Assembly: GCF_006345805.1 (NCBI RefSeq) | Contig: NC_043004.1 | Span: 51,026,001-51,090,000, forward strand | Reading direction: 5' to 3' | DNA length: 64,000 nt | DNA from: Octopus sinensis | Lineage: Eukaryota | Shown here: positions 11,351 to 63,350 of the stretch, piece by piece | How positions within the stretch are numbered: position 1 is the first letter of the stretch | How the letters are laid out: each line of letters begins with the position of its first letter | The notes under the pieces: model-generated | What the model was told of the DNA's origin: nothing | Database searches by the model: none | Seen by the model: only the letters and a program-made list of their open reading frames with translations | Made by a program: the position numbers and the translations under genes

Positions 11351-11383
<33 letters not shown>

Positions 11384-11385
11384 TA

Positions 11386-12102
11386 TATAATTTCAACAAT
11401 TGAGGGTAAAATTAATTAATATTAATCAATTTCACCAAGTATTCAGTATGCAAAGGACCATTTAAGGCGAATTCAAATTATTACATTATATAAAAGGGTT
11501 AGTAAAATAAATTACTTTGCCGCTACTGAACTCATTAGAAATAGTAGCTACAAAAAACTTTTTAAAAACTATTTCTAATACTTAAAGAAAAACCTCTCTC
11601 ATATAGTGTTTGCTCAATTCAACTCACGAAAGTATGGGGGTAAAGACATTAAAAATCAAATGCAAAGGTTATTTGAGAACGTACGTTTCAAGATTAGTCA
11701 ACTCGACATTTCTATCATCAACTCAGAACTCCTTGGTTTGGACTTGAAAACACTGAAAGTGGGAGTATACCCTGTCGGCTTCTTATCGCTTCTGAAGATC
11801 TGCTCGAAACTAACAGTGCCAGCAACTCAAAATGCAAGCGAAGAATTTCTGCTCTCCCCTTTCCACCAGCGGGTTAAAATCAGTAACACACTATGCTTTT
11901 TGCGGTAAAATCCGAGCATTAAATAGAGAGAGATGAATTATAATTTCAACAATTGAGGGTAAAATTAATTAATATTAATCAATTTCACCAAGTATTCAGT
12001 ATGCAAAGGGACCATTTAAGGCGAATTCAAATTATTACATTAATAAAAGGGTAGTAAAATAATTACTTTGCCGCATACTGAACTCATTAGAAATAGTAGC
12101 TA
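11386..12102 (-). mobile_element. HHR-bearing non-coding element (family Z2), 1.3 tandem units of ~553 bp
   Basis: 11386-11550 is directly repeated at ~11939-12102; HHR at 11674-11725. Confidence 0.75.
11674..11725 (-). ncRNA. Type I hammerhead ribozyme (C3U in this copy)
   Basis: Minus strand reads tgag-TTGATGA-...-GAAAC-gtac-GTT-ctca. Confidence 0.7.
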
Positions 12103-12337
12103 TATTGCCGCAAAGGCATTTACTTCAAAATACGCCAGCTAAGATAAGTTAAACTGTCTAAAGTCATAAGATACCCGCTGTTTTTGTCCTGTTATTACTA
12201 TTCTTGTTTTTACCATTATTGTTTTTTGTATTTATATTCGTGTGGCATCGTCCGTTTGTCTGTCCTTGTTTCGTATACATTCGATCCCTTTTCCCAAGAA
12301 ATCTAATGCTCGCAGCTTAGTTTTTCCTTGGGGCTGG

Positions 12338-17094: not shown

Positions 17095-17171
17095 ATTTTT
17101 TTATGTATGAAATATAATTAATTTAATAAAATCAATAAATTTCACCTAGTAGTGTTTCGGTATGGAAAGGA

Positions 17172-17238
<67 letters not shown>

Positions 17239-18385: not shown

Positions 18386-19066
18386 CAATATACTGTGCGC
18401 TGTATAGTGTAAAGAGATCCTGTTTTTGAAATTGGCTAATTTGCTTACAGTGTGTTAATAGTTTTGTTCTTTAGTTTAAAAAAAAAACAACTGATTTGAT
18501 GAGGATTGAATTCGCTTTGCTTCAAAGCGTATTAATTTATTCCTGCATCTTTTAAATACATTTCAGTTTCTTTACTTTCCAGAGGTTATTTTATATTTTA
18601 AGCATATTAGTCAGTCTTCAGAAACCCGGAAGATGCAGAACTCTGACTCACTCCAAGCTTGCCGGATATTTAACCGGTACTGTTTATGCATGTATGTATG
18701 TATGTATGTATGTATGTATGTATGTATGTATGTATGTATGTATGTGTATGGAGGTATGTATGTGTGTATGTACGTATGTGTCTGTGTATGTATGTATGTA
18801 TGTATAAATATATAAATATTTATTCAAATATATACATATATATACAAATATATACATATATATACAAATATATACATATATATACAAATATATAAATATA
18901 TTGTATGTATGTATGTATGTATGTATGTATGTATGTATGCATGTATGTATGTATAAATACATACATATGTGTGTGTGTGTGTATAATAAGTATAAAGAAG
19001 AAAATTATTATTCATATGAATTAATATTAGTATATATACACATACATACATACATACATACATACA

Positions 19067-19100
<34 letters not shown>

Positions 19101-19213
19101 GGTGGCTGCCCCCACGTTATCGAGTATGGCCATTGCACGAAGCTTAATCAATGAACGGCAACGTGAAACTCAGAGTAACAGGTTTTGTTGAATTTTCTGC
19201 TGCTTTAAATAAA

Positions 19214-19251
<38 letters not shown>

Positions 19252-19542
19252 TTATCCGTAATAATGAAGGGTGAAATTAATTAATTTGGAATAATTATCA
19301 ATTACACCAAGTAGTCTCGGCATGTAAAAGCCTCATTCGAGGAAAATTAAGTAATACTAAGCAATAAAGGGGTTAGCAACGAATTGCCTTACCACATACC
19401 GAATTTAGAAATAGCAGTCAAAGAGTTATAGCTATTTCTTCTACTAAAAAGGGAGATCTCAGTAAAAACAGCAATTGGAAGGCAGACACAAACAGGTAAG
19501 AGAGAATGAATTGACGGCAATCTATCATACAATTTTAAGTTA

Positions 19543-19654
19543 TCTACGGACGTACGTTTCGAAATCAAGTTTAGGAAAGCATAAGAATTAAATATTAAAT
19601 ATTAAATATTAAATAATTCTATCTCACCAAAACTTCTTTTCTCTTCAGCGTAGA
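19543..19654 (-). ncRNA. Type I hammerhead ribozyme (Z1 unit)
   Basis: Reverse complement of the 21082 motif, with an intact core. Confidence 0.85.
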
Positions 19655-21081
19655 ATACTATAATCATAATGATTATATATGAATTTTGAGATACTAGAAG
19701 GCACCAACTCAACTCAGTATCAGAGCGAGCTAGAATCCGCAAATAGTATCACCAAATTCAATGTTTGAATGAAAAGATTGTGTCACCAGCCCCTTCCCAC
19801 CCGCGCGTAGCCAAAACAAGATGCTGTGGTCATCTACTGAGATAAAATATGGTTATCCGTAATAATGAAGGGTGAAATTAATTAATTTGGAATAATTATC
19901 AATTACACCAAGTAGTCTTCGGCATGTAAAAGCCTCATTCGAGGAAAATTTAAGTAATACTAAGCAATAAAGGGTTTAGCAACGAATTGCCTTACCACAT
20001 ACCGAATTTAGAAATAGCAGTCAAGAGTTATAGCTATTTCTTCTACTAAAAAAGGGAGATCTCAGTAAAAACAGCAATTGGAAGGCAGACACAAACAGGT
20101 AAGAGAGAATGAATTGACGGCAATCTATCATACAATTTTAAGTTATCTACGGACGTACGTTTTGAAATCAAGTTTTAGGAAAGCATAAGAATTAAATATT
20201 AAATATTAAATATTAAAATAATTCTATCTCACCAAAACTTCTTTTCTCTTCAGCGTAGAATACTATAATCATAAATGATGATATATTGAATTTTGAGATA
20301 CTAGAAGGCACCAACTCAACTCAGTATCAGAGCGAGCTAGAATCCGCAACTAGTATCACCAAATTCAATGTTTGAATGAAAAGATTGTGTCACCAGCCCC
20401 CTTCCCACCCGCGTGTAGCCAAAACAAGATGCTGTGGTCATCTACTGAGATAAAATATGGTTATCCGTAATAATGAAGGGGAAATAATTAATTAATGAAG
20501 AGAAAAGAAGTTTTGGTGAGATAGAATATTAATATTTAAATTTATATTTAATCTTATGCTTTCCTAAAAACTTGATTTCGAACGTACGTCCGTAGATAAC
20601 TTAAATTGTATGATAGATTGCCGTCAATTCATTCTCTCTTACCTGTTTGTGTCTGCCTTCCAATTGTTGTTTTACTGAGATCTCCCTTTAGTAGAAGAAA
20701 TAGCTATAAACTCTTGACTGCTATTTCTAAATTCGGTATGTGGTAAGGCAATTCGTTGCTAAACCCTTTATTGCTTAGTATACTTAAATTTCTCGAATGA
20801 GGCTTTTACATGCCGAAGACTACTTGGTGTAATTGATATTTATTCCAACTTAATTAATTTCACCCTTCATTATTACGGATAACCATATTTTATCTCAGTA
20901 GATGACCACAGCATCTTGTTTTGGCTACACGCGGTGGGAGGGGCTGGTGACACAATCTTTCCATTCACACACATTGAATTTGGTGATACTAGTTGCGGAT
21001 TCTAGCTCGCTCTGATACTGATTGAGTTGGTGCCTTCTAGTATCTCAAAATTCAATATATAATCATTTATGATTATAGTAT

Positions 21082-21194
21082 TCTACGCTGAAGAGAAAAG
21101 AAGTTTTGGTGAGATAGAATTATTTAATATTTAATATTTAATATTTAATTCTTATGCTTTCCTAAAAACTGATTTCGAAACGTACGTCCGTAGA
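21082..21194 (+). ncRNA. Type I hammerhead ribozyme, ~80-nt stem II; predicted cleavage after 21188
   Basis: tctacg-CTGAAGA-gaaa..agttttgg..agaatta/taattct..ctaaaaact..tttc-GAAAC-gtac-GTC|-cgtaga. Confidence 0.9.
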
Positions 21195-21683
21195 TAACTT
21201 AAAATTGTATTGATAGATTGCCGTCAATTCATTCTCTCTTACCTGTTTGTGTCGCCTTCCAATTGTTGTTTTTACTGAGATCTCCCTTTTTAGTAGAAGA
21301 AATAGCTATAACTCTTTGACTGCCTATTTCTAAATTCGGTATGTGGTAAGGCAATTCGTTGCTAAACCCTTTATTGCTTAGTATTACTTAATTTTCTCGA
21401 ATGAGGCTTTTACATGCCGAAGACTACTTGGTGTATTGATAATTATTCCCAATTAATTAATTCACCCTTCATTATTACGGATAACCATATTTTATCTCAG
21501 TAGATGACCACAGCATCTTGTTTTGGCTACACGCGGGTGGGAAGGGGGGGTGACACAATCTTTTCATTCAAACATTGAATTTGGTGATACTAGTTGCGGA
21601 TTCGAGCTCGCTCTGATACTGAGTTGAGTTGGTGCCTTCTAGTATCTCAAAATTCAATATATAATCATTTATGATTATAGTAT

Positions 21684-21796
21684 TCTACGCTGAAGAGAAA
21701 AGAAGTTTTGGTGAGATAGAATTATTAATATTTAATATTTAATATTTAATTCTTATGCTTTCCTAAAAACTTGATTTCGAAACGTACGTCCGTAGA
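21684..21796 (+). ncRNA. Type I hammerhead ribozyme; predicted cleavage after 21790
   Basis: Same fold as 21082; 602 nt between the two cleavage sites. Confidence 0.9.
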
Positions 21797-21979
21797 TAAC
21801 TTAAAATTGTATGATAGATTGCCGTCAATTATTCTCTCTTACCTGTTTGTGTCTGCCTTCCAATTGCTGTTTTTACTGGATCTCCATTTTAGTAGAAGAA
21901 ATAGCTATAAACTCTTTGACTGCTATTTCTAAATTCGTATGTGGTAAGGCAATTCGTTGCTAAACCCTTTATTGCTTAG

Positions 21980-22012
<33 letters not shown>

Positions 22013-22047
22013 TATATATATCTTTATATATATATATATATATAGAT

Positions 22048-22095
<48 letters not shown>

Positions 22096-22355
22096 ATATA
22101 TATATATTTATATATATAGACTATATACATATACATGTACACATATATATACATATTATGTATGTTAATGTAGCATGTATGTATGTATAAATACATACAT
22201 ATGTGTGTGTGTATAATAAGTATAAAAAATAAAATTATATTCATATGAATTAATATATAGTATATATGTGTGGATGTGTGTCTATATATATATTATCTAT
22301 ATAATATAGATATTTATATATATATATACATATATATACATATATATATAAATAT

Positions 22356-22412
<57 letters not shown>

Positions 22413-22593
22413 GCACACATATATATATATACATATATATGCATGTATGTATGTATGCATGTATGTATGTATAAATACATACATATGTGTGTGTGTATAA
22501 AAGTATAAAAAAGAAAATTATTATTCATATGAATTAATATTAGTATATATATCGTGTATGTATATAATATATATATATATATATATATGTGTG

Positions 22594-22652
<59 letters not shown>

Positions 22653-22695
22653 CATACATACATACATACATACATACATACATACATACATACAT

Positions 22696-23105
22696 GTTGG
22701 CTGCCCCGTCGTTATCGAGTATGGCCATTGCACGAAGCTTAATCAATGTTGTTATCGTGCAATGCCTGTGCAAGAAGATTTTTTGTAAGTTTGGGAAAGG
22801 CTGTGCACTGAGTCAATCCCACTCACTAAGCAACAGCAGCCATAATCCGAAAAGAAGAACAAGTCAACATCATCGGTAACCACTGAGCTGCAGGTTTTAT
22901 GTCGGAGTTATCCCAGTTAACTGAGTTACCTTCTCCCAGAAGGATGCCCTAACAAAGGCTGGGAGTCCTTCACTCCCAATGGTTTAACCGCGCGATCGGG
23001 TATTCAGTCCGATTATTTCTATGTCCCCGCGCATGATACTGCCTTAAGACATTTATTGGATGGCCATTGACTCTCAAGAGTTCCTCCGCCCTTTGACGGG
23101 TTTTG
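22696..23105 (-). mobile_element. Short non-autonomous RTE-like retroelement
   Basis: 3' hairpin cattgcacga/tcgtgcaatg; RTE-5'UTR-like ttctcccagaaggatgccctaacaaaggct; a truncated copy lies at ~19100-19152. Confidence 0.45.
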
Positions 23106-30605: not shown

Positions 30606-32438
30606 GGGCACTGTCATGCCTTTGGATGTCATTTTCACGTCACACTTTTTCTCGTCCATCTTCGTTTCTTTCCGTATAATTTACGCAAAATCAAAAACGC
30701 GTGTAAATATATCAAATTAAAAAACGCAAATTATTTAGAATGTAAAAATCAAATATATCAAATTAAAAAACGCAAATTATTTAGAATGTAAAAATCAAAT
30801 ATATCAAATTAAAAAACGCAAATTATTTAGAATGTAAAAATCAAATATATCAAATTAAAAAACGCAAATTATTTAGAATGTAAAAATCAAATATATTTAT
30901 TCTTGCATTATTCATTATTGTTTTTAAAAAAGAAATCACACCAAAATCTGCACAAATGAACCCCCATGACCATCACCGCGATTACATACACCAATCAGAA
31001 TGACCACTGACCACCACGTGCGTAATTCAAACTTTGAAATTTATTCAGTTAGAAACTTTCAGTGTGATATCAACACGTGCTAAACAATTTTTAATATGGC
31101 TTTTGCATATCCAAGTTTAAGAGGAATTAGTCACCGCGATATTGCCGTCTCCACTGCTACAACAGCAGATAGCATTAATTGGCTTAAGAGACATGGCCTT
31201 TTGAATACCCAGAAAATATGTACATCGTGTGGAGCTAGCATGAGTGAAGTAGGGAAAAAAAGTATATCTGATGAAGTAATATGGTCGTGTGGAAGGCCTT
31301 GTAGAAAATCCGTGTCAATTAGAAAAGGAACATTTTTAGAAAATAGCAAATTGAAGTGTCAACAAATCATAGATATTTTGTTTTACTGGGCCAAAGAAGA
31401 TTTAGCAAAAGGAATAGGACAGGAATGTCATTTAGCAAATGTAGCCGTGACAGATTGGAGGAATTTTTGCCGCGATGTATGTGCAGAATATTATGTTGCA
31501 CAGAATATTAAGCTGGGAGGACCCAACAGAATCGTAGAGATAGATAAAACCGCGTTTGTTAGGAGAAAATATCATGTTGGCCATCGGGTTAAAACGCAGT
31601 GGGTGTTTGGTGCTTTAGAAAGAGATACCAGAAGATGTATTTTAGTGGCAGTGGAAGATCGGACAGCGGACACTCTTTTACAGATTATACGAGAGCGTAT
31701 ATTGCCTGGTACAACAATAATTTCCGACCTTTGGCGTTCGTATAATACACTCAGTCAACTAGGATACAGACATTTGACCGTGAATCATTCAATAAATTTT
31801 GTTGATCCGGTAACATTTGCCACAACCAACCACATAGAATGTTTATGGAAACACGTAAAGACTCGAAATAGAAGAGAATGTGGAACAGCCAGAAATTTAC
31901 TTCAGACCCATCTCATCGAATTCATGTGGCGCTATGAATTTAAGGACGATATATTCGGGAAGTTGATAGAGCAAATTCGACAGCTATATCCATGTGTTGA
32001 GTATAAGTATCAAGACAGAATGAGTATCGCATTTATTTTTAAACTTAACTTCAAGTTTATATTTTGATAATCTCACCGTTGAAAATGATATTTGAAAATA
32101 ATTTGCGTTTATTAATTTGATATATTTGATTTTTACATTCTAAATAATTTGCGTTTTTTAATTTGATATATTTGATTTTTACATTCTAAATAATTTGCGT
32201 TTTTTAATTTGATATATTTGATTTTTACATTCTAAATAATTTGCGTTTTTTAATTTGATATATTTGATTTTTACATTCTAAATAATTTGCGTTTTTTAAT
32301 TTGATATATTTACACGCGTTTTTGATTTTGCGTAAATTATACGGAAAGAAACGAAGATGGACGAGAAAAAGTGTGACGTCAAAATGACGTCAGATTTTTC
32401 TTCTTTCACTTCTGACATCCAAAGGCATGACAGTGCCC
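30606..32438 (+). mobile_element. Merlin DNA transposon with ~290-bp TIRs containing 46-bp tandem repeats
   Basis: Perfect terminal gggcactgtcatgcctttggatgtca / tgacatccaaaggcatgacagtgccc; 46-bp unit x4 at 30705-30888, inverted at ~32096-32310. Confidence 0.93.
31096..32067 (+). CDS. Merlin/ISXO2-like (IS1595-family) DDE transposase, 323 aa, uninterrupted
   Basis: N-terminal CxxC..C..C zinc ribbon, SIRKGTFLE, VEIDKT, WVFG, IISDLWRSY, HLTVNHS..FVDP, TNHIECLW, HLIEFMWR. Confidence 0.92.
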   Translation: MAFAYPSLRGISHRDIAVSTATTADSINWLKRHGLLNTQKICTSCGASMSEVGKKSISDEVIWSCGRPCRKSVSIRKGTFLENSKLKCQQIIDILFYWAKEDLAKGIGQECHLANVAVTDWRNFCRDVCAEYYVAQNIKLGGPNRIVEIDKTAFVRRKYHVGHRVKTQWVFGALERDTRRCILVAVEDRTADTLLQIIRERILPGTTIISDLWRSYNTLSQLGYRHLTVNHSINFVDPVTFATTNHIECLWKHVKTRNRRECGTARNLLQTHLIEFMWRYEFKDDIFGKLIEQIRQLYPCVEYKYQDRMSIAFIFKLNFKFIF

Positions 32439-40524: not shown

Positions 40525-41028
40525 TTATTCCTTTTCCTTACTGTTGGGCGTATATTTTATTTTATCGCTAAAACGACTATCTTTTAAAGCCTTATTATAA
40601 ACTGGGGCAACGCCATTGAAGATGTCCTTATCAGAGGAGAGGCTAGAAATCCTCTTACTAATATTTTTAACTAAATTTTTGAATACTATAGGGGGATGGC
40701 ATGAACCTACATTAATATAACTTAGTCTATCATTGGGCTTCCTATAAGGCTTATAAATATTCTTATTAAGATCTAAGGAAACGTCTAAGAAATTGACAAC
40801 CGTCAGGTTAGTATCTATAGTTATACTAAGTCCGAAGTATTTCATTAACTGGATAATATCCTTCCTAAAACGATCTTGTGCTGGTCCATTTGTATTAGCT
40901 GTTAAGGCGAGGGCATCATCCTTGTAGATGGCGAAATGTACGTTAGGGAATGTCTTACCTAAGGTATCTAGGAGAAAAAGTCCAATTACATCACAGATGC
41001 CTGCCCCATCATATGAACCCATGCTCAC
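40525..41028 (-). pseudogene. PLE reverse transcriptase fragment
   Basis: MGSYDGA..IYKDD..NFLDV..YRKPN..HPP motifs; in-frame stop and frameshifts downstream. Confidence 0.92.
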
Positions 41029-41211
41029 ATCGAAAGCGCCCTCTGTGTCGGTGTTTTTTTACCCACTTTGCGTTCTCACTGAAAAGTAATGTCTTTCTAG
41101 AGTTTTATCTTGACTATCGAGTAATGTAACATATTATTGTATAGATAAATTTCCTCTATTTACATAATATTGAGGTCTCTTTCTTTCTTTTGTTATCTTA
41201 CCGTTTTACCA

Positions 41212-47457: not shown

Positions 47458-49095
47458 ATCAAAATAAGAAACAAGGATATCCAGATGTAATGCAGTACGA
47501 TCGTTTCATGCGACTCCATTTAATTGAACAGTGCAAATATTACATCAATTTTAAAATGTAGAGCAATTTGCAGGCTAAAGCTGATGGGGTAGGGAGAGTA
47601 AAACTTATAATACTTAACTATTTGACAACCATAAACCCTGTGTTATTTTTATATACTTAGGCACATTTTAGGGAATTGTTTTCACACACACAAAAAAAAA
47701 AAGAAAGAAACTCAGAATGATTTCAGTATTTTACACAATAGAGGGATGGAGAATATAGAAATAATTCCATATTTATATATTTGTATACGAACTTAACATA
47801 TATTTATAGTTAATTATTAAATAGTAATTTTTGGTATTAATAAGTTAAATTAAAGGAATATGTTAAAAATTCATATATTTTTTGTATGCTAATAATTTTA
47901 GAGCATATTTCTTGTATTATAAAATAAATAGTGAAATATACCAGTATAGTTTTAATATGAAATTTATAGAAATATATTATAAATAAAATGATATAGTGAG
48001 TAAATAAGTAAGAAAATTGGTTTAAAATTAAAATAAAGAAATGTAAATGAGTATAATGAAAAATAAATATAAATCTTTGTAGAATTTATAGACAAGGAGT
48101 AGAACAGATTTGTATTTTTAAAACTTATTATAAGATATACTTAGCTTATTTATATTAATAGTTAAGGTAAGTTGTTAGAAGAATTTTTTTTATAATTCTA
48201 TAATTTTTAGACCGACGTTTATTTTTACTTATCATGAGAATATCTATAAATGACTAGTGTTTAATGTCGGGTAAAGAGATGATCAAGTTATTGGGCAAAA
48301 ATTATATTATTAACAAAGCTTTTATGAAATTATGGGTTTTGTTATAGATTTAAGAAAATGCTATTATTAATCCTTATATGAGAAATTTCTAATTAATTGG
48401 TACTTATAAAATGTTATTTACTTATTTATTTATAATCTATTTATATAAAGCTTTCTAGTACAAACAAAGATCATGAGGGTAGAGTTGTTTTAGAGAAATA
48501 GAAACCAAGTAACTTTGATATTATTATCTATTCTTATCATGTTTTAAATATTAATTAAGGAGATTTAGAAGATCTTTTTAAGAGGAGATTCCCAGTAAAT
48601 AAGGTATTAATTGACTCACATACCAAAATCCTTAAAATGCAATGGAAGAGAGGTAACCAAAATGTAATTTTGAAAATGAAAATATTGAGGAATAGAATTA
48701 TTTTTTGGGAAATCCTATATTTCATATTAAGAGTAAAGTATGGTTATATGGGGTATAATAATTTAGGCTTATATAAAGGTAATATTTATAATATTGAAAA
48801 AGGATTAGGTGGAGTAGAATTCTCGTAGAAATAGATGTGAAAATTACCAAATCCTTAAAACTTTTTGTGAAGTAAGTATACAACTAAATAACTTCATTAG
48901 ATATATAGAATTTATGAAATAATTTTAGAAATTTATAAATTATTTTATTCAACTTTATTCAATTTGTCTATGTTATTAAATTTCTTAATACCTATTGCTG
49001 ATTAAATAATAAAATATAGCAGGGTATGCTATTTCCTTTTTGATTAAAAAAAAAAACATTAAGATCTAAAATTCAGGAATAAGAATGCTATTCTT

Positions 49096-49976
49096 TAAAA
49101 ATATTTAAAGGTACGGGTAGTACAATGTATACACGATACTCCTAGTTCAAAACGGTTATTTAATAAGTTTACATTATCCCTATGTTTCAAAATTTCATAT
49201 ATCTCCATGGAGCAAAGCTCACATCCATATCTACTATTTTTATAAGGTTGCACTTTCCTTACTATGTCCCATTTAAGGTTAAATCTAATTTTATTTTATT
49301 TTAACTCCCAAATTTTATTGGATAATGTTGTGCAACTTGCTTTATGTTTAAGTTTAAAACATGATTTGTGGTTATTTATACGTTTTTCAGATCCACCGAG
49401 CAACCGAAATAAAGTTATTAGTTGAAGTCATTACTGTACATTTATATACTACGTTTCGGACCAGACACTGACCAGATACCGGACAGTGGGACTTGGTTCT
49501 ACAATTACAACTAGGGGAATTATTTTTGATATTAGTATTATTTGGAAACAAGTTATTGTTATTATTATTATTTAAACCATTATTAACATTAATAGTATCA
49601 TCGTTATCTATAATTATATTATTAGGTAAGTTATGGTTTTGACTATTAGTTTCTAATTTTCCCACTACTCTCTTATCATTTAACTTTATCTTATTGCCAT
49701 CAGGTATACAAATAGTATCTATGTGCGCATATGCATTGGAACTGTATTCAGCAACATTAATATTATTGGTCCTAATATCATTTATATCATACACCCCATC
49801 AATTTCAATATTGTTATTTTCATTATAGATGTTTAAGTCTTTGTTAGTAGGAATATTATTATCATTTTTATTTCTATTCATATAATTATTATTTTTATTA
49901 CTATCATTTTCATTTTTATTTCTATTATTATTGTTAGTATCATTCTCATAATTAATGTTATTATTGATATTATTGA

Positions 49977-50025
<49 letters not shown>

Positions 50026-50417
50026 GTTGTTGTTGTTGTTGTTGTTACTTCCAACATTTCTGGCCAGTCTAATATTTTTCTATGTAATTTAGCTATGATG
50101 GTACTTATATTTGGTAGAGTAGAGTATGATATTCTAACTGTTTTACGAGAAAATATTTCGTTATATTTATGGGAAGTAGGGAAGTTTGTTTCTAATATGG
50201 ACATAAATTTGCTATATATATTAGTAGATATTGTCCAGTTAAAAGGTATATTCAGCCTTATGACATTTTTGTTTTTGAATTTCTTATTTAAGTAAGGGTA
50301 GGATAGATTAGTGTTATCTATATTCCCCAGAATTTTGTTATTATTGCCAAATGTGAGGATAAAATTCTTTTCGAAAAAAAATATTTTCTCGAAAAAAATT
50401 TTATCAATAGCCAGCAT
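49096..50417 (-). pseudogene. Naiad-type GIY-YIG endonuclease/thumb ORF, frameshifted
   Basis: NVIRLNIPFN..FPTSHKYNEIFSRKTVRISYSTLPNI..CNCRTKSHCPVSGQCLVRNVVYKC..RINNHKSCF..TLSNKIWELK..WDIVRKVQPY..CELC..E..LLNNRFEL..C.H. Confidence 0.85.
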
Positions 50418-50604
50418 ATTAAAAAATACCTTTAACGGTTAAATTTATAAACAATTCATAAATGAGGGCAAACGAAAAAAATTTCTAATGCCAAATATGC
50501 CGAAAAATTGGACATATTGTCCATTAACCATATAATTTTTTCACAATACGCACGCTACTCGAAAAAAGGCTGACAGAAATTTTTTTTAAAATTCCATTAT
50601 TACC

Positions 50605-50659
50605 ATATCGGACCGATTTCAGAGTTAGCTACTAAGAGCCCTCTCTTCGTCAGTGATAC
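50605..50659 (-). ncRNA. Type I hammerhead in pLTR
   Basis: Minus strand reads gtatca-CTGACGA-agag..ctct-GAAAT-cg-GTC|-cgatat; the first stem I pair is mismatched. Confidence 0.65.
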
Positions 50660-52210
50660 ATGTGGCAAAAGAAATAAATGAGATACTTACTCATACTCAT
50701 GGAAGAAGCAAATACTAAGTCACGGGCACAACTAAGTACCCCAAATACACACAAAATAGAAATACTCCAGTCCATTCGAGGCACGTGCGATTTGAACTGA
50801 GGCTCTCACAGAGTGAGTTACTTAGTTCGGAAGCTCTTAGTAGCTAACTCTGAAATCGGTCCGATATGGTAATAATGGAATTTTTTAGAAATTTCTGTCA
50901 GCCTTTTTTCGAGTAGCGTGCGTATTGTGAAAAAGTTATATGGTTAATGGACAATATGTCCAATTTTTCGGCATATTTGGCATTAGAAATTTTTTTCCTT
51001 TGCCCTCATTTATGAATTGTATATATATATATATTGGGGTTTTTTTTATCAGTAGGAGTAATTTTTATGTTTTCGTTTACATTTATTTCATTTAACTTAA
51101 GTTACTCTTAAGTTCACTTTCTCTAAAAGTATAAAAGTTCACACCGGGTATGAGTGTGATTGTCAGTGCGTGAGAACTCACGTGTGTAAAGAATTTCTTG
51201 GGGTGACAGTAATTAAAAAAGGTATGTAAAAGATAATTTATTTTAAAGATATACTTTTCTGTTTGTAAATGTTTTTTCTTACACGCATACACGGGCGCGC
51301 GCGGGTACGCACACACGCTCATACACACACACGCGCGCGCGCGCGCGCACGGAATGACTTGGTGAGGGGTGGGGAATTAAAAACTCAAATTACAAAGTTT
51401 TGGGTTTTTGTTGTTGCTTAAAATTCCAGCAATGGACCACCACCTCATCATTCTATAAAATGTGTTTATGGTTTAAAAGAATTAAAAAACATCAATACAA
51501 GTGAGAAAGAAATGGGATGCGTTAGAAACAACAGCTCAAGCTCCCTTAAATCACACACCTGTCGTTCGAAAATTAATTTGAAATGAAAAACAGAAGCAAA
51601 TTGCTGATTCGGACTAGCTGTATTTGAAGACCATGATTTTAAGAAATTTCGAAAAGAAGCCAAAATTTTAGTTTTTATGTGGGAGGTGGATGGTGGGGCT
51701 AATGAAAATAAATTTCAAACTTCCACTATTGTTTTAAAATTATTCTTTATTTTATTTTATTTTTTGTTTTGTTTGAAAATAAAGACAGTGGGAATTGTAA
51801 TGATGATCACCGATCACGAACATTTTTTTAAAACTTCAAGTTTTCTCCCATTGTTTTTCAGTTTATAGTGTAAAAGAAACTTGGTCAAAATCAGAACTGA
51901 GTAGGGAAGGGGCATTCTAAAAAATTTATGAATTTTCAATTTTTTTTTACGAAAATGGCGAAACCCATTGTTTTTAGATGCTCACTGAGAAAAAAGCAAT
52001 AAAAAGATAAAATAAACGGGTAGACGAGGGGATTCATATATTTTCAAAAAATTCTGTTCATTTGCAAGGGTGTGGTAAAATAAAATTTGAAAAATCCCCT
52101 TCAAAACGGAGAAAATTCAATTTAAGCGGGTGTGTCCGCCAAGGGATTCTAGCCTGAAACTTGCCCGGCAACGACAGGATACTCAGATAGTGTGTGTGTG
52201 GGTGGGTGTA

Positions 52211-56410: not shown

Positions 56411-56967
56411 TATATATATATATATATAGATATATATATATATATATAATATATATATACTTTATTCAAAAGCAGCAGAAATTCAATAAAACCTGTTACT
56501 CGGAGTTTCAACGTTCCCGTTCGTCGGCAGTTTTGCTAAGTAAAGCATATTACTCTACCCCTGGTATTTGAGTACTCTTTTTTCCACCTTGTTTCACATT
56601 TATGTGTTTACTCCGGTATATATATATATATATAATAACAAAGGGTAAAATTAATTAATTAAGAAGTAATCGTTCAAATGTTTCTAGTACCTTCGGATTG
56701 TTACAGAAAATCCATACTGATGAAGAATATGGTTAGTAAAGTATATATTTTTATATTCTTTATGTAAAAACCTATTCAGAACGCGCGTCTATGGATGATC
56801 GGATATTGATTGATTTTCGTTTGCTTTACTTTACTTTCTGCTATGTGATTAAACTTCAAGTATTTTGGGTTCTCTGGAAGTAGAAGAAATGGCTAAGAGT
56901 TTTGGCTGCTATTTCTGAACTTCGGTGTGTGGTGAGGCAATTCTTTGCTGAACCCTTTTATTAGTAT

Positions 56968-57003
<36 letters not shown>

Positions 57004-58020
57004 ATATGGCGGGCTGGCCATATCGGAGCAATTCAAGATTAATCAGCCGAAATTGCTAAGATGATCTGGTTCTTGACTGAGACTGAGGGCTTCGAATGTC
57101 CGTCCTGTGGTTCTTGTGTCGTCTCTGTGGTGTTTCATGTTCTTGTCCATGTCTGTAATTAATTTTACTGTTTACTATATAATCGGCGGCTACGTATCCA
57201 CAATTGTCCTTATACGTAAGTATATTTTTTTCTAGCTTTGATACGACTCTTAATCTGTCTCTTTTTCTCTCTCTCTCTCTCCTCCTTATTCCACTTCCTT
57301 TCTTTCCCTCTCCATCCGTCCCCCCCCCTTCTACGTTTCTCTATCTCTCTCACCTCCAGCCCCCTCGATCTGTCTCTTTCTTTCCTCCCTCGTCCACCTT
57401 CTCTCCCTTTTCATCTGTCCCTTTCTCCTGTCTTTTGTTCTCACGTGACAGCTAGCCGCTGTTGAGCGCTCTTTTCGTTTTCAGCAGCCGCAGAAGCACA
57501 CGTATTTGTTCGTCTCCCCGTGGCCTTTAGGCACAACTTCACAAGCCAGCCATACTCAAATCGTCTGTCGAAAGACCCTTGTCCTACGTCCTGGTTTGTT
57601 TTGTTGTTATTTTTTATTTTTACCGTTATGTTTTACGTTTTTGTATTCTTATTGGGTCACGTATTCTGTATTTTTGTTTGTGTACTTCGATCGTTTTCCG
57701 TCCTTTCGTTGTATACATTCAAGTTCTTCCAGGGGATCTAATGCGCTTGGCTTAGATTTCCCTGGCGGGCTGGCCATATCGGAGCAATCTCAAGATTAAT
57801 CAGCCGAAATTGCTATAGATGATCTGGTTCTTGACTGATGACTGAGGGCTTCGAATGTCCCGTCCTGTGGTTCTTGTGTCGTCTCTGTGGTGTTTCATGT
57901 TCTTGTCCATGTCTGTAATTAATTTTACTGTTTACCTATATATATATATATATATAGATATATATATATATATATAATATATATATACTTTATTCAAAAG
58001 CAGCAGAAATTCAATAAAAC

Positions 58021-58059
58021 CTGTTACTCGGAGTTTCAACGTTCCCGTTCGTCGGACAG
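58021..58059 (-). ncRNA. Minimal hammerhead, CCGACGA core variant (also 56493-56530; truncated + copy 19152-19183)
   Basis: Minus strand reads ctgt-CCGACGA-acg-ggaa-cgt-t-GAAAC-tccga-GTA|-acag. Confidence 0.65.
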
Positions 58060-58235
58060 TTTTGCTAAGTAAAGCATATTACTCTACCCCTGGTATTTGA
58101 GTACTCTTTTTTCCACCTTGTTTCACATTTATGTGTTTACTCCGGTATATAAATATATATAATAACAAAGGGTAAAATTAATTAATAAGAAGTAATCGTT
58201 CAAATGTTTCTAGTACCTTCGGATTGTTACAGAAA

Positions 58236-58324
58236 ATCCATACTGATGAAGAATATGGTTAGTAAAGTATATATTTTTATATTCTTTATGTAAAAACCTA
58301 ATTCAGAAACGCGCGTCTATGGAT
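58236..58324 (+). ncRNA. Type I hammerhead (family Z3; second copy 56710-56796)
   Basis: atccata-CTGATGA-agaat..ggtt/aacc..attca-GAAAC-gcgc-GTC|-tatggat; stem I is 7 bp. Confidence 0.85.
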
Positions 58325-58859
58325 GATCGGATATTGATTGATTTTCGTTTGCTTTACTTTCTGCCTATGTGATTAAACTTCAAGTATTTTGGGTTCTCTG
58401 GAAGTAGAAGAAATGGCTAAGAGTTTTGGCTGCTATTTCTGAACTTCGGTGTGTGGTGAGGCAATTCTTTGCTGAACCCTTTTATTAGTATATATATATA
58501 TATATATATATATACATACATATATATTTATACACACATACACATGTATTAATATCTATATCTGTGTTTGTTTTGATATTCATATTTTCCTAAACACACA
58601 TTAACTTTTACAAGGAAAACAGTGACAGTGGTTCGAGCAGTAGTGAGAATGCTCTATGTGTATTCTCTCTTTGTGCTTTGTTAGCATGTACTCACTGCTG
58701 TCAGCATGCTAAGGCAAATTCTGTTGTTACTGATATAAAAAAAAAATTGAAATATCACTGATGTTTCACTTAAACGTCTAGCTGAATAAAAATTCATTAT
58801 GTGCATCAGAATCAATATTCTGTGTATCGTACTTAATGTAAATACATCACGAAAATCCT

Positions 58860-59950: not shown

Positions 59951-60437
59951 TTCCTTCTCTTCTTACTGATGGGTTCATACATATGTATGAGTGTGTGTGT
60001 GTGTGGTGTGTGTGTGTGTGTGTGTGTGTTCTCTTGTGTTCTTAGTTATTTGAGATCTTCCTCTAATATTTCTTCTGGATCTTTACATTCTGAATTCAAA
60101 TCTCGCCGAGATCAACATTGACTTTCATCCTTCTGGGGTCGATAAATACCAGCCAAGTAGCGGAGCGAGTGGAAGGGATTAACCTCTTTCTTCATATTCC
60201 AAGCCTTATACCTATATTTAAAACATGAGCTAGCAGAATCCTTAGTGCGTCGGATAAAATGCTTAGAGACATTTCTTACGGTACTTTAAGTTCTGAGCTG
60301 AAATTCTACCGAGGTCGACTTTACTTTTTATCCTTTCGGGATCGATAAAATAAAGGACTAGCGAAGCATGGGGGTTGATGGAATCGAGTTATCCCTGCCC
60401 TGAAAACTGTTGGCTTGTGCCTATAGTGGAAGGGACC

Positions 60438-61315
60438 ATCATCATCATCATCATCATCACCATCATCATCATCATCCCCATCACCATCACCATCATCATC
60501 ATCATCGTCATCGTCATCGTCATTATCATCGTCATCGTCATCATCATCGTCATCGTCATCATCATCGTCATCGTCGTCATCGTCATCGTCAACATCATCA
60601 TCGTCGTCATCGTCATCGTCGTCATCGTCATCGTCGTCATCGTAATCGTCATCATCGTCATCATCGTCATCATCGTCATCGTCATCATCGTCAGTCATCA
60701 TCGTCATCGTCATCATCGTCATCGTCATCATCGTCTTCGTCATCATCGTCATCATCATCATGGTCATCATCATCATGGTCATCATCATCATGGTCATCAT
60801 CATCATCATCATCACCATCACCATCACCATCACCATCACAATCACCATCATTATCATCATCATCATCATCATCATCGCCATCACCATCGCCATCGCCAGC
60901 ACCATCACCATCACCATCGTCATCGTCATCGTCATCGCCATCGCCATCACCATCATCATCACCATCATCATCATCGCCATCGCCATCGCCATCTCCATCA
61001 CCATCACCATCACCATCCTCTTCGTCATCGTCATCGCCATCGCTATCGCCATCGCCATCATCATCATCGTCATCGTCATCGTCATCGTCGTCATCATCAT
61101 CATCATCATCATCATCACCATCACCATCATCACCATCACCATCACCGTCACCACCACCATCACCTCACCATCATCATCACCATCATCATCATCATCATCA
61201 TCATCATCACCATCGCCATCGCCATCGCCATCATAATCATCATCATCATCATCATCATCATCGTCATCGTCTTCGCCATCGCCATCACATCACCGTCACC
61301 ATCATCATCATCATC

Positions 61316-61346
<31 letters not shown>

Positions 61347-61622
61347 CCATCACCATCACCATCATCTTCATCATCACCATCATCATCATCATCATAATCA
61401 TCATCATCGCCGTCGCCATCGCCACGCCATCACATCACCATCACCATCATCTCATCATCATCATCATCATCATCATCACATCACCATCACCGTCACCATC
61501 ACCTCACCATCATCACCTCACCATCATCATCATCATCATCATCATCGCCATCGTCATCGCCATCGTCATCGCATCGCCATCGCCATCACCACCCATCACC
61601 ATCACCTCACCATCATCATCAC

Positions 61623-61656
<34 letters not shown>

Positions 61657-61872
61657 TATCATCATCATCATCGCCATCACCATCACCATCACCATCATCT
61701 TCATCATCATCATCATCATCATCATCACATCACCATCACCGTCACCATCACCTCACCATCATCATCACCATCATCATCATCATCATCATCATCGCCATCG
61801 TCATCGCCATCGTCATCGCCATCGCCATCGCCATCACCATCACCATCACCATCACCTCACCATCATCATCAC

Positions 61873-61915
<43 letters not shown>

Positions 61916-62342
61916 GCCATCACCATCGCCATCGCCAGCACCATCACCATCACCATCGTCATCGTCATCGTCATCGCCATCGCCATCACCATCATCATCA
62001 CCATCATCATCATCGCCATCGCCATCGCCATCTCCATCACCATCACCATCACCATCCTCTTCGTCATCGTCATCGCCATCGCTATCGCCATCGCCATCAT
62101 CATCATCATCGTCATCGTCATCGTCATCGTCGTCATCATCATCATCATCATCATCATCACCATCACCATCATCACCATCACCATCACCGTCACCACCACC
62201 ATCACCTCACCATCATCATCACCATCATCATCATCATCATCATCATCATCACCATCGCCATCGCCATCGCCATCATAATCATCATCATCATCATCATCAT
62301 CATCGTCATCGTCTTCGCCATCGCCATCACCATCACCGTCAC

Positions 62343-62392
<50 letters not shown>

Positions 62393-62559
62393 CCATCACC
62401 ATCACCATCATCTTCATCATCACCATCATCATCATCATCATCATCATCATCGCCGTCGCCATCGCCATCACCATCACCATCACCATCATCTTCATCATCA
62501 TCATCATCATCATCATCACATCACCATCACCGTCACCATCACCTCACCATCATCATCAC

Positions 62560-62602
<43 letters not shown>

Positions 62603-62987
62603 GCCATCGCCATCGCCGTCGCCATCGCCATCATCATCATCATCATCATCGCCATCGTCATCGCCATCGCCATCGCCATCACCATCACCGTCACCATCAC
62701 CTCACCATCATCATCACCATCATCATCATCATCATCATCATCATCGCCATCGCCATCGTCATCGCCATCGCCATCACCATCACCATCGTCATCGCCATCG
62801 TCATCGCCATCGCCATCGCCATCAACATCACCATCACCATCATCATCACCATCATCATCATCATCATCGTCATCGCCATCGCCATCGCCCTCGCCATCAT
62901 TATCATCATCATCATCGTCGTCATCGTCATCGCCATGTCCATCACCAACACCATCACCATCACCATCGCCATCACCATCACTATCAC

Positions 62988-63022
<35 letters not shown>

Positions 63023-63081
63023 CTATCACCATCATCATCATCATCATCATCATCATTACCATCATCATCACCATCCCCATC

Positions 63082-63113
<32 letters not shown>

Positions 63114-63304
63114 CATCATCATCACCCTCACCATCACCCACACCATCATCATCCTCATCATCGCCATCGCCATCATCATCATCGCCATCGTCATCGTCAT
63201 CGTCGTCGCCGTCGCCGTCACCGTCACCGTCATCGCCATCGCCATCATCATCATCATCATCATCATCACCACCATCATCATCATCATCATCATCATCATC
63301 GTCG

Positions 63305-63350
<46 letters not shown>

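Follow-up and report, generated by a model that had tools for sequence, protein, structure and literature searches.

A head-to-head array of hammerhead-bearing units with two different fixed ends in the genome of Octopus sinensis

RESULTS

Layout of the array and its surroundings

We analysed a stretch of 64,000 nucleotides from the genome of Octopus sinensis (contig NC_043004.1, forward strand, positions 51,026,001 to 51,090,000), called the window in the following and numbered from its first base. Positions 19246–21982 (2,737 nt) hold 4.56 copies of a 600-nt non-coding unit, arranged in two head-to-head arms with (TA)n on either side; they are 95–97% identical to the reference copy, in agreement with an earlier note on this DNA that had described about 4.5 near-identical non-coding units. 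Counting unit positions from the first base past the predicted hammerhead cut, the minus-strand arm (19246–20493, ~2.07 units) consists of the pieces 19246–19548 (unit 1–302), 19549–20151 (a full unit) and 20152–20493 (unit 263–602); its outer, RNA-sense 3' end lies at what we call site B (unit ~302) and its inner end at unit ~263. The plus-strand arm (20496–21982, ~2.48 units) is made up of 20496–20590 (unit 503–602), 20591–21188, 21189–21790 and 21791–21982 (unit 1–196), with its inner end at unit 503 and its outer RNA-sense 3' end at site A (unit 196). The two arms, referred to as the B arm and the A arm, meet at a junction (20494–20496) with ~2 nt between them, in an error-rich stretch. 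Indeed, we counted 9.3 gap openings per unit at this locus against a median of 4.4 (noise rank 3 of 74), so that single-base readings at its junction are weak. The (TA)n target tracts span 19215–19249 on the left and 21980–22110 on the right, and since both flanks are (TA)n a target-site duplication is unreadable. As for the dsRNA of >1 kb that had been suggested for a read-through transcript, the geometry stands (1.0–1.14 kb by arithmetic from the arm lengths); the read-through itself is hypothetical.

About 200 nt of flank are found in direct repeat on both sides of the nested insertion (18946–19153 and 22555–22748, part of it also at 22143–22267 and 22422–22625); the last 69 nt are 94% identical, and the repeat may stem either from a long duplication of the target or from a duplication introduced by the assembly. 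A TA-inserting element with a hammerhead-like CCGACGA core is present at 19153–19213, 56460–56615 and 57990–58145, and a 5'-truncated copy of it abuts the array on the left. Elsewhere in the window we observed an intact 327-aa ISXO2/IS1595-like transposase frame, presumably of Merlin type, at 31084–32067 (Pfam PF12762, E 1.5e-18), flanked on either side by 46-bp tandem repeats, and a (CAT)n-type microsatellite of 2.9 kb (60437–63350).

The hammerhead motif and the unit

On the plus strand, cuts are predicted after 20590, 21188 and 21790, with the spacing of 598 and 602 nt reported before, and on the minus strand after 20152 and 19549. The plus-strand motif at 21082–21194 (cut after 21188), recognized by its core and backed by covariation and energies, comprises a 6-bp stem I, a CUGAAGA core, a stem II of 82 nt, GAAA and a self-complementary helix III (ACGUACGU), so that the 6-bp stem I, the ~80-nt stem II and the palindromic loop III of the first description are all recovered in the window copy. 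Intact type I motifs were also identified by their cores at 21684–21796 (plus strand, predicted cut after 21790) and at 19549–19655 (minus strand, predicted cut after 19549). A type I hammerhead had been ascribed to each unit; this applies to three of the five sites and fails at the other two, i.e. at 20590, where C3 and the 5' strand of stem I are missing and GAA stands in place of GAAA, and at 20152 (20152–20259, minus strand), where the core motif carries a singleton G12>A that is either a mutation or a consensus error. The consecutive complete motifs at 21188 and 21790 give the locus the two or more tandem type I hammerheads by which retrozymes are defined. The (AATATTT)n tract, whose repeat number differs among loci, does form the loop of stem II as had been noticed, but it is not confined to the loop and makes up much of the distal stem as well.

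A scan of the 64-kb window against Rfam at gathering thresholds gave 0 matches; the assignment as a ribozyme is therefore based on the core motif together with covariation: in 10 copies (stems I and II), one pair of stem I is seen as U-A, U-G and C-G, and two further pairs change on both sides. The calculated energy of helix III is -9.8 kcal/mol for the dimer and +2.4 kcal/mol for the hairpin, and the predicted helix favours the dimer form. Folding of the unit departs from that of shuffled sequences with z = -5.6 (linear) and -5.7 (circular). Its coding capacity is limited to an ATG frame of at most 47 aa (66 aa from stop to stop), an ORF with RT and GIY-YIG domains is absent, and its G+C content is below 50% (206 of 600 bases). 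In three loci (L135, L131 and L138) an A-run 8 nt past the cut site is expanded by ~10–30 A, with a length that differs from unit to unit in L135.

A dispersed family with two fixed ends

A 29-nt motif of the window family and its nearest sister has 2,560 exact matches in the genome and 0 in the control, and because of these matches and of the folding score the array is not a product of chance. Genome searches with the unit yielded at least 201 matches (best 40 of 1,332 candidates) and at least 246 matches (best 39 of 520); for families 1 and 2, scaling up from the first 100 motif matches gives an estimate of roughly 1,400 loci. Copies of one subfamily are 98–100% identical. The units thus belong to a young, dispersed, multi-copy, non-coding repeat family.

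Parts of the unit are also present in 20 of 24 public sequencing runs, none of which is on record as RNA. When the contigs of 4 runs were compared with 20240–20520, matches came from two runs guessed to be RNA (one contig of 1,346 nt in X12, four contigs in X7), and these contigs are evidence neither of transcription nor of circles or strand. Within the same 4 runs and the same interval none of the contigs listed spans the junction of this array; the contigs depart from the window near 20480, where the window itself departs from the family, so that the gap there proves nothing. A short-read contig of another sample (X2) holds a different head-to-head joint of the window family, which is a weak hint given its depth of 39 and a short side of 21 nt.

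For ends and haplotypes we used 77 loci (the window and 76 of 78 others), which were chosen as best matches to full units and therefore over-represent long arrays; L069 (same array as L035), L070 (overlapping L036) and L072, L074 and L089 (overlapping other family-2 loci) were left out of the counts. In 43 of the 77 loci an inverted 5'-truncated copy lies beside a direct copy (foldbacks), the other 34 are one-way arrays, and none has an LTR-like layout. The RNA-sense 3' ends fall on site A (unit ~196) or on site B (unit ~289–304, with two main sub-positions), which lie ~100 nt apart, and 49 of 120 ends are identical to the base at site A. Almost every foldback has one end of each kind: we found 35 with A+B, 1 with A+A and none with B+B, and 7 had one end elsewhere or unscored, i.e. 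35 of 36 scorable foldbacks are A+B, which by arithmetic has a probability of <1e-9 if the ends were independent. One-way arrays end in A in 29 cases and in B in 5. The strand switches among the first 100 genome matches in coordinate order are tails-out without exception (16/16), and 134 of 154 flanks across the family are TA-rich. These two different fixed outer ends are the main feature of the array and were absent from the earlier note.

Junctions between the arms

The inner ends of the arms are scattered over the unit, with 3 of 70 lying within 15 nt of A or B, and the number of junctions that are symmetric within 40 nt (7 of 43) is close to the 5.8 expected by chance. At the joints the arms overlap by 1–3 nt in 18 cases, are blunt in 5, overlap by 4 nt or more in 7 (one of them spurious; null 2%) and show an insert or are unresolved in 13. 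At the window locus the plus arm does begin at the U of C|UGAAGA, i.e. the orientation flips at 20496 inside the core, as had been pointed out; as the inner ends of the family are scattered, this is a coincidence, and a special meaning of a junction in the ribozyme core is ruled out. By BLAST coordinates, 7 of 70 inner ends fall at the cut site; part of this apparent excess is due to clipping, and we did not accept it as an enrichment. Three of ~300 unit-unit junctions, one each in L128, L113 and L067, have additional nucleotides at the cut site (15 in the case of L128), possibly scars of template jumps or of ligation.

In LINE-1 twin priming, the RNA is primed from either strand of the target, the first cDNA stops at the second primer, and the product is an inversion with a microhomology joint. 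The inversion and the microhomology joint, and the two-strand priming presumed here, are common to both systems. In the window family, however, both arms cover the same sequence several times and, as stated, hardly any inner end lies near A or B, which rules out a single-pass priming of the LINE-1 type. The scattered, non-symmetric junctions likewise lead us to reject mirror-image chimeras, and snap-back synthesis as a rule.

Haplotypes and the spectrum of variants

Units inside one locus share one haplotype, to which assembly polishing may contribute by homogenising them. In 40 of 43 foldbacks the two arms do not differ at any informative site, compared to 212 of 1,806 cross-locus pairs, and 13 variants private to a single locus occur in both of its arms (9 loci). 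The 20 arrays with at least 4 full units carry 17 haplotypes; arrays reach ~14 units. In L045 two variants alternate in an ABABAB order, and in L050 and L040 a variant stays in register across both arms. Exceptions are fixed variants in one arm only in two foldbacks (T484G in L127, G583C in L132) and partial, non-periodic variants in five arrays (L036, L053, L104, L124 and L133); as judged from these sequences, they would not be explained by a single monomer circle.

With a polarity that depends on the consensus, array-wide private variants on the ribozyme strand are skewed towards A>G (11 versus 4 T>C, p 0.02) and C>T (6 versus 0 G>A, p 0.03); in variants present in at most 3 loci the former skew persists (19 versus 7, p 0.002) and the excess of C>T fades (8 versus 4, p 0.39). 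Singleton variants are strand-symmetric. This difference between array-wide and singleton variants points to changes fixed at the RNA stage. A-to-I editing is common in cephalopods and is a candidate for the cause of the A>G skew.

The A-B element and sister families

Alignment and structure delimit a conserved structured segment common to four families, the A-B element (unit ~96–300; 21284–21489 on the plus strand of the window), in which sites A and B each lie ~13 nt 3' of a GGU...ACC hairpin. In the consensus structure of the four families 97.5% of cells are paired and 5 of 45 pairs changed on both sides, which 3 of 500 shuffles reach; as the structure was derived from the same 9 related sequences on which it was scored, and such sequences can beat shuffles without structure, we regard the conservation of the predicted fold across the four families as suggestive. 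Eleven pairs vary through G-U on the ribozyme strand, and this polarity favours that strand as the working RNA. The A-B element is likely to be the binding and priming region of the enzyme.

The sister families have only unit 96–300 in common with the window family, at 70–80% identity. The end rule is found in them, too, in samples biased by the query towards A ends for family 2 (foldbacks 11/11 A+B) and towards B ends for family 4 (7 A+B and 1 B+B). Family 2 is represented in the window at 56621–56967 and 58149–58491, with a CUGAUGA core, a stem II of ~54 nt and a CGCGCG helix III; this copy has a short B arm and an A arm, an A-B element ~78% identical to that of the window family, and lies inside a local duplication of ~1.53 kb. 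Pieces of further A-B-bearing sister families with units of ~545–560 nt were seen at 11382–11790, 11939–12104, 1340–1458 and 17116–17175. A structure-based A-B pattern has 6,381 matches in the genome and 2 in controls. A purine-rich box (CACG...GG.AAGGGG, unit ~345–365, ~21530–21550 in the window) is kept in families 1–4, 45–65 nt past site B and outside the A-B element. An internal snRNA promoter was considered as well and dropped: the U1 upstream element was unmatched in 8 profile tests (best 7/100 shuffles), 1 of 16 pairwise tests beat shuffles, and 8 U6 flanks have no obvious element in common.

A fifth hammerhead tandem family occupies 50348–51020, with a unit of ~500 nt, a foldback and two fixed ends ~95 nt apart. 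Its B-like end runs straight into a broken endonuclease region of the Hydra type (49100–50350), after which a long AT-rich tail extends as far as (TA)n at 47460. Compared with the A-B element, it is significantly similar to families 3 and 4 (0/200 shuffles reach the score each) and borderline for family 2 (3/200), and shows no similarity to the window family (62/200).

Search for a partner element

Neither an autonomous Penelope-like element (PLE) that carries the A-B element nor a PLE pLTR with similarity to the unit was found among 30 + 45 + 30 loci, which sample few PLE families. Around related endonuclease domains (45 loci, 20 taken at 9 kb) A-B matches occur only as separate insertions or at chance level, and none of 30 loci from the structure-based pattern has an RT frame joined to the A-B element; Pfam and PDB sequence searches with PLE proteins gave nothing useful. 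Two candidates were rejected. The endonuclease fragment at 49–50 kb dropped out as a partner ORF when its 5' neighbour turned out to be the fifth non-coding tandem family. The second, a 717-aa PLE family, has its own hammerhead and its own end and no A-B match. A fragment of this young, abundant family (150 genome matches) lies at 40525–41058, and its locus L141 has the 717-aa frame with RWK, DKT and CxCX5C, and a CCGAAGA-core hammerhead in its 3' end. These three motifs are marks of the Hydra clade of PLEs, which targets (TA)n (PMC8557442). Hydra-clade PLEs are abundant in this genome, and the mobilising enzyme of the window family is likely to be one of them by virtue of this abundance and TA targeting, its partner element not being found among the loci examined.

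DISCUSSION

Formation of the foldbacks

On balance, we consider the window family to be probably a non-LTR retrozyme with two fixed 3' ends, mobilised by a PLE enzyme that would prime from both (TA)n strands on one RNA, probably a circle. The ribozyme strand would be transcribed, cut by dimeric hammerheads and ligated to circles of ~600 nt, some of them dimeric. A PLE protein, likely a dimer, would bind the two hairpin modules of the A-B element, and its endonuclease would cut both strands of (TA)n; one 3'-OH would then prime at A and the other at B, each enzyme heading for the RNA 5' end and circling the template a variable number of times. Joining of the two cDNA ends to each other with 0–7 nt of microhomology would leave a head-to-head array, and a single successful priming, mostly at A, with the cDNA joined straight to the target, would leave a one-way array. 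There is a biochemical precedent in a PLE of the anole, which cleaves the two strands of its target, extends both of them and begins synthesis at two sites inside the RNA, downstream of its hammerhead (PMC11167929). The earlier note had proposed a retrozyme-like element, a PLE-style inversion and a concatemer made from one template; these parts gain support from the end rule, the shared haplotypes and the dimer-favouring helix III, and the rolling-circle part we infer.

In the main alternative, the same two-site priming by a PLE would take place on a linear multimer that is transcribed from an array already present and stays uncleaved, or on two RNAs from one source locus, which we regard as unlikely on the whole. 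Such templates account equally well for the end rule, the scattered junctions and the shared haplotypes, and they are a better fit to the two arm-specific variants and to the non-periodic partial ones. Furthermore, uncleaved RNA is the main substrate of the anole enzyme and cleavage is not needed (PMC11167929), which keeps a linear template alive; for Xenopus retrozyme dimers, 8 of 9 were without cleavage in vitro (bioRxiv 10.64898/2026.07.22.740005). However, copying from a linear multimer can only shorten arrays. The many haplotypes found in long homogeneous arrays require a bottleneck of one unit followed by re-amplification, which favours a circle, and a dimer circle would agree with L045, where the period of two units is perfect.

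Expansion at the level of DNA, with short PLE-type insertions later enlarged and homogenised by unequal crossing-over or gene conversion, has been proposed for retrozyme arrays by Li, Clavereau and Pollet (bioRxiv 10.64898/2026.07.22.740005). Neighbouring units in L036 and L053 do share late variants, and the ABAB pattern could be a two-unit duplication. This reading nevertheless seems improbable to us here, as private variants are common to inverted arms, the arrays are young and dispersed, and array-wide variants are strand-asymmetric in contrast to singletons.

Even less can be said for an inversion by self-priming (snap-back) on an antisense template, as proposed for Adineta Penelopes (PMC3846280): the model was built to explain head-to-head orientation and a few near-symmetric junctions (L045, L065) would suit it, yet symmetric junctions are about as frequent as chance predicts, one A and one B end are not predicted, and the polarity of the G-U pairs speaks for the ribozyme strand as the RNA that folds, so that we hold it to be very improbable. 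An artefact of chimeric reads or of assembly, be it the whole array or just the inversion, is barely credible in spite of the error-rich window locus and its duplicated flank of ~200 nt: a fold-back chimera has mirror-image arms and flanks, whereas in 35 of 36 scorable loci the two arms differ in the fixed site at which they end and in the place where they start. To this the X2 contig adds its weak hint.

Relation to known systems

Published descriptions are cited here as far as the accessible text of each source goes. With the metazoan non-LTR retrozymes (PMC7229834; bioRxiv 10.64898/2026.07.22.740005) the window family has in common the dispersed tandem arrays of non-coding units, one type I hammerhead per unit and a GC content below 50%, and for both a circular RNA intermediate and mobilisation by PLEs are proposed. 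The unit was previously singled out as large; with 600 nt it falls within the 51–972 bp reported (bioRxiv 10.64898/2026.07.22.740005) and is not exceptional. What differs is stem II, with ~70–82 nt in the window family versus 4 bp in the canonical form and 6–8 bp in PLE variants (PMC4209133), and the frequent head-to-head arrays with the A+B rule, the word 'inverted' being absent from the accessible text of PMC7229834. Also, no pLTR homologue was found for the window family among the 30 + 45 + 30 loci, and the family is known here from its sequence.

EN+ Penelope-like elements (PMC8557442, PMC3846280) resemble the array in their head-to-head copies, the extension at one end only, the (TA)n targets and a hammerhead upstream of the ends. 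Their one-sided tail is 30–40 bp long, whereas the distance between the A and B ends amounts to ~100 nt; moreover, the window unit is without an ORF and its arms are multimers of the 600-nt unit. The element Poseidon from Anolis carolinensis, studied in vitro (PAc, PMC11167929), is similar in that two internal starts past the hammerhead define the genomic ends, the target is AT-rich, both strands are extended and a dimer is predicted. In PAc, the start sites are 30–40 nt apart and inside the ORF, the template is linear and no difference in start site was seen between the strands; a pairing of one of each per insertion is unreported in the accessible part of PMC11167929.

Retrozymes, their proposed circles and their mobilisation by PLEs have been published (PMC7229834, PMC4209133, bioRxiv 10.64898/2026.07.22.740005), as have inverted PLE copies, one-sided tails of 30–40 bp and the (TA)n bias (PMC8557442, PMC3846280). 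In a search of mainly open-access literature we found no report of cephalopod retrozymes, PLE twin priming or rolling-circle reverse transcription of retrozymes; such elements, or variants with a long stem II, may be listed in the supplements of PMC7229834, PMC8557442 and the bioRxiv preprint, and the word 'ribozyme' has 0 occurrences in the accessible text of PMC13282606. Neither the class nor the qualitative architecture is new; what is added here are the counts and the cis-element.

Significance

The accessible text of PMC8557442, PMC7229834 and PMC11167929 lists two questions as open: how tandem and inverted PLE insertions originate, and whether reverse transcription of retrozyme circles really takes place. 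The window family provides countable constraints on them, namely the pairing of an A end with a B end in each foldback, a haplotype common to the two arms and the scatter of the junctions. As it also offers a defined 200-nt cis-element and two start sites predicted to the base, the two-site and circle hypotheses become testable in the published in vitro assay once the partner protein is found. Our most far-reaching proposal is a tentative one, which may well prove wrong: each foldback could be the fossil of one PLE dimer, its two subunits seated on the repeated hairpin modules of one RNA circle that in some cases was A-to-I-edited, with rolling-circle copying from both target strands. If true, one mechanism would lie behind three features of all EN+ Penelope-like elements, their inverted repeat, their one-sided tail and their tandem arrays, and the 200-nt A-B element would be a portable loading signal kept by at least four RNA families in this genome.
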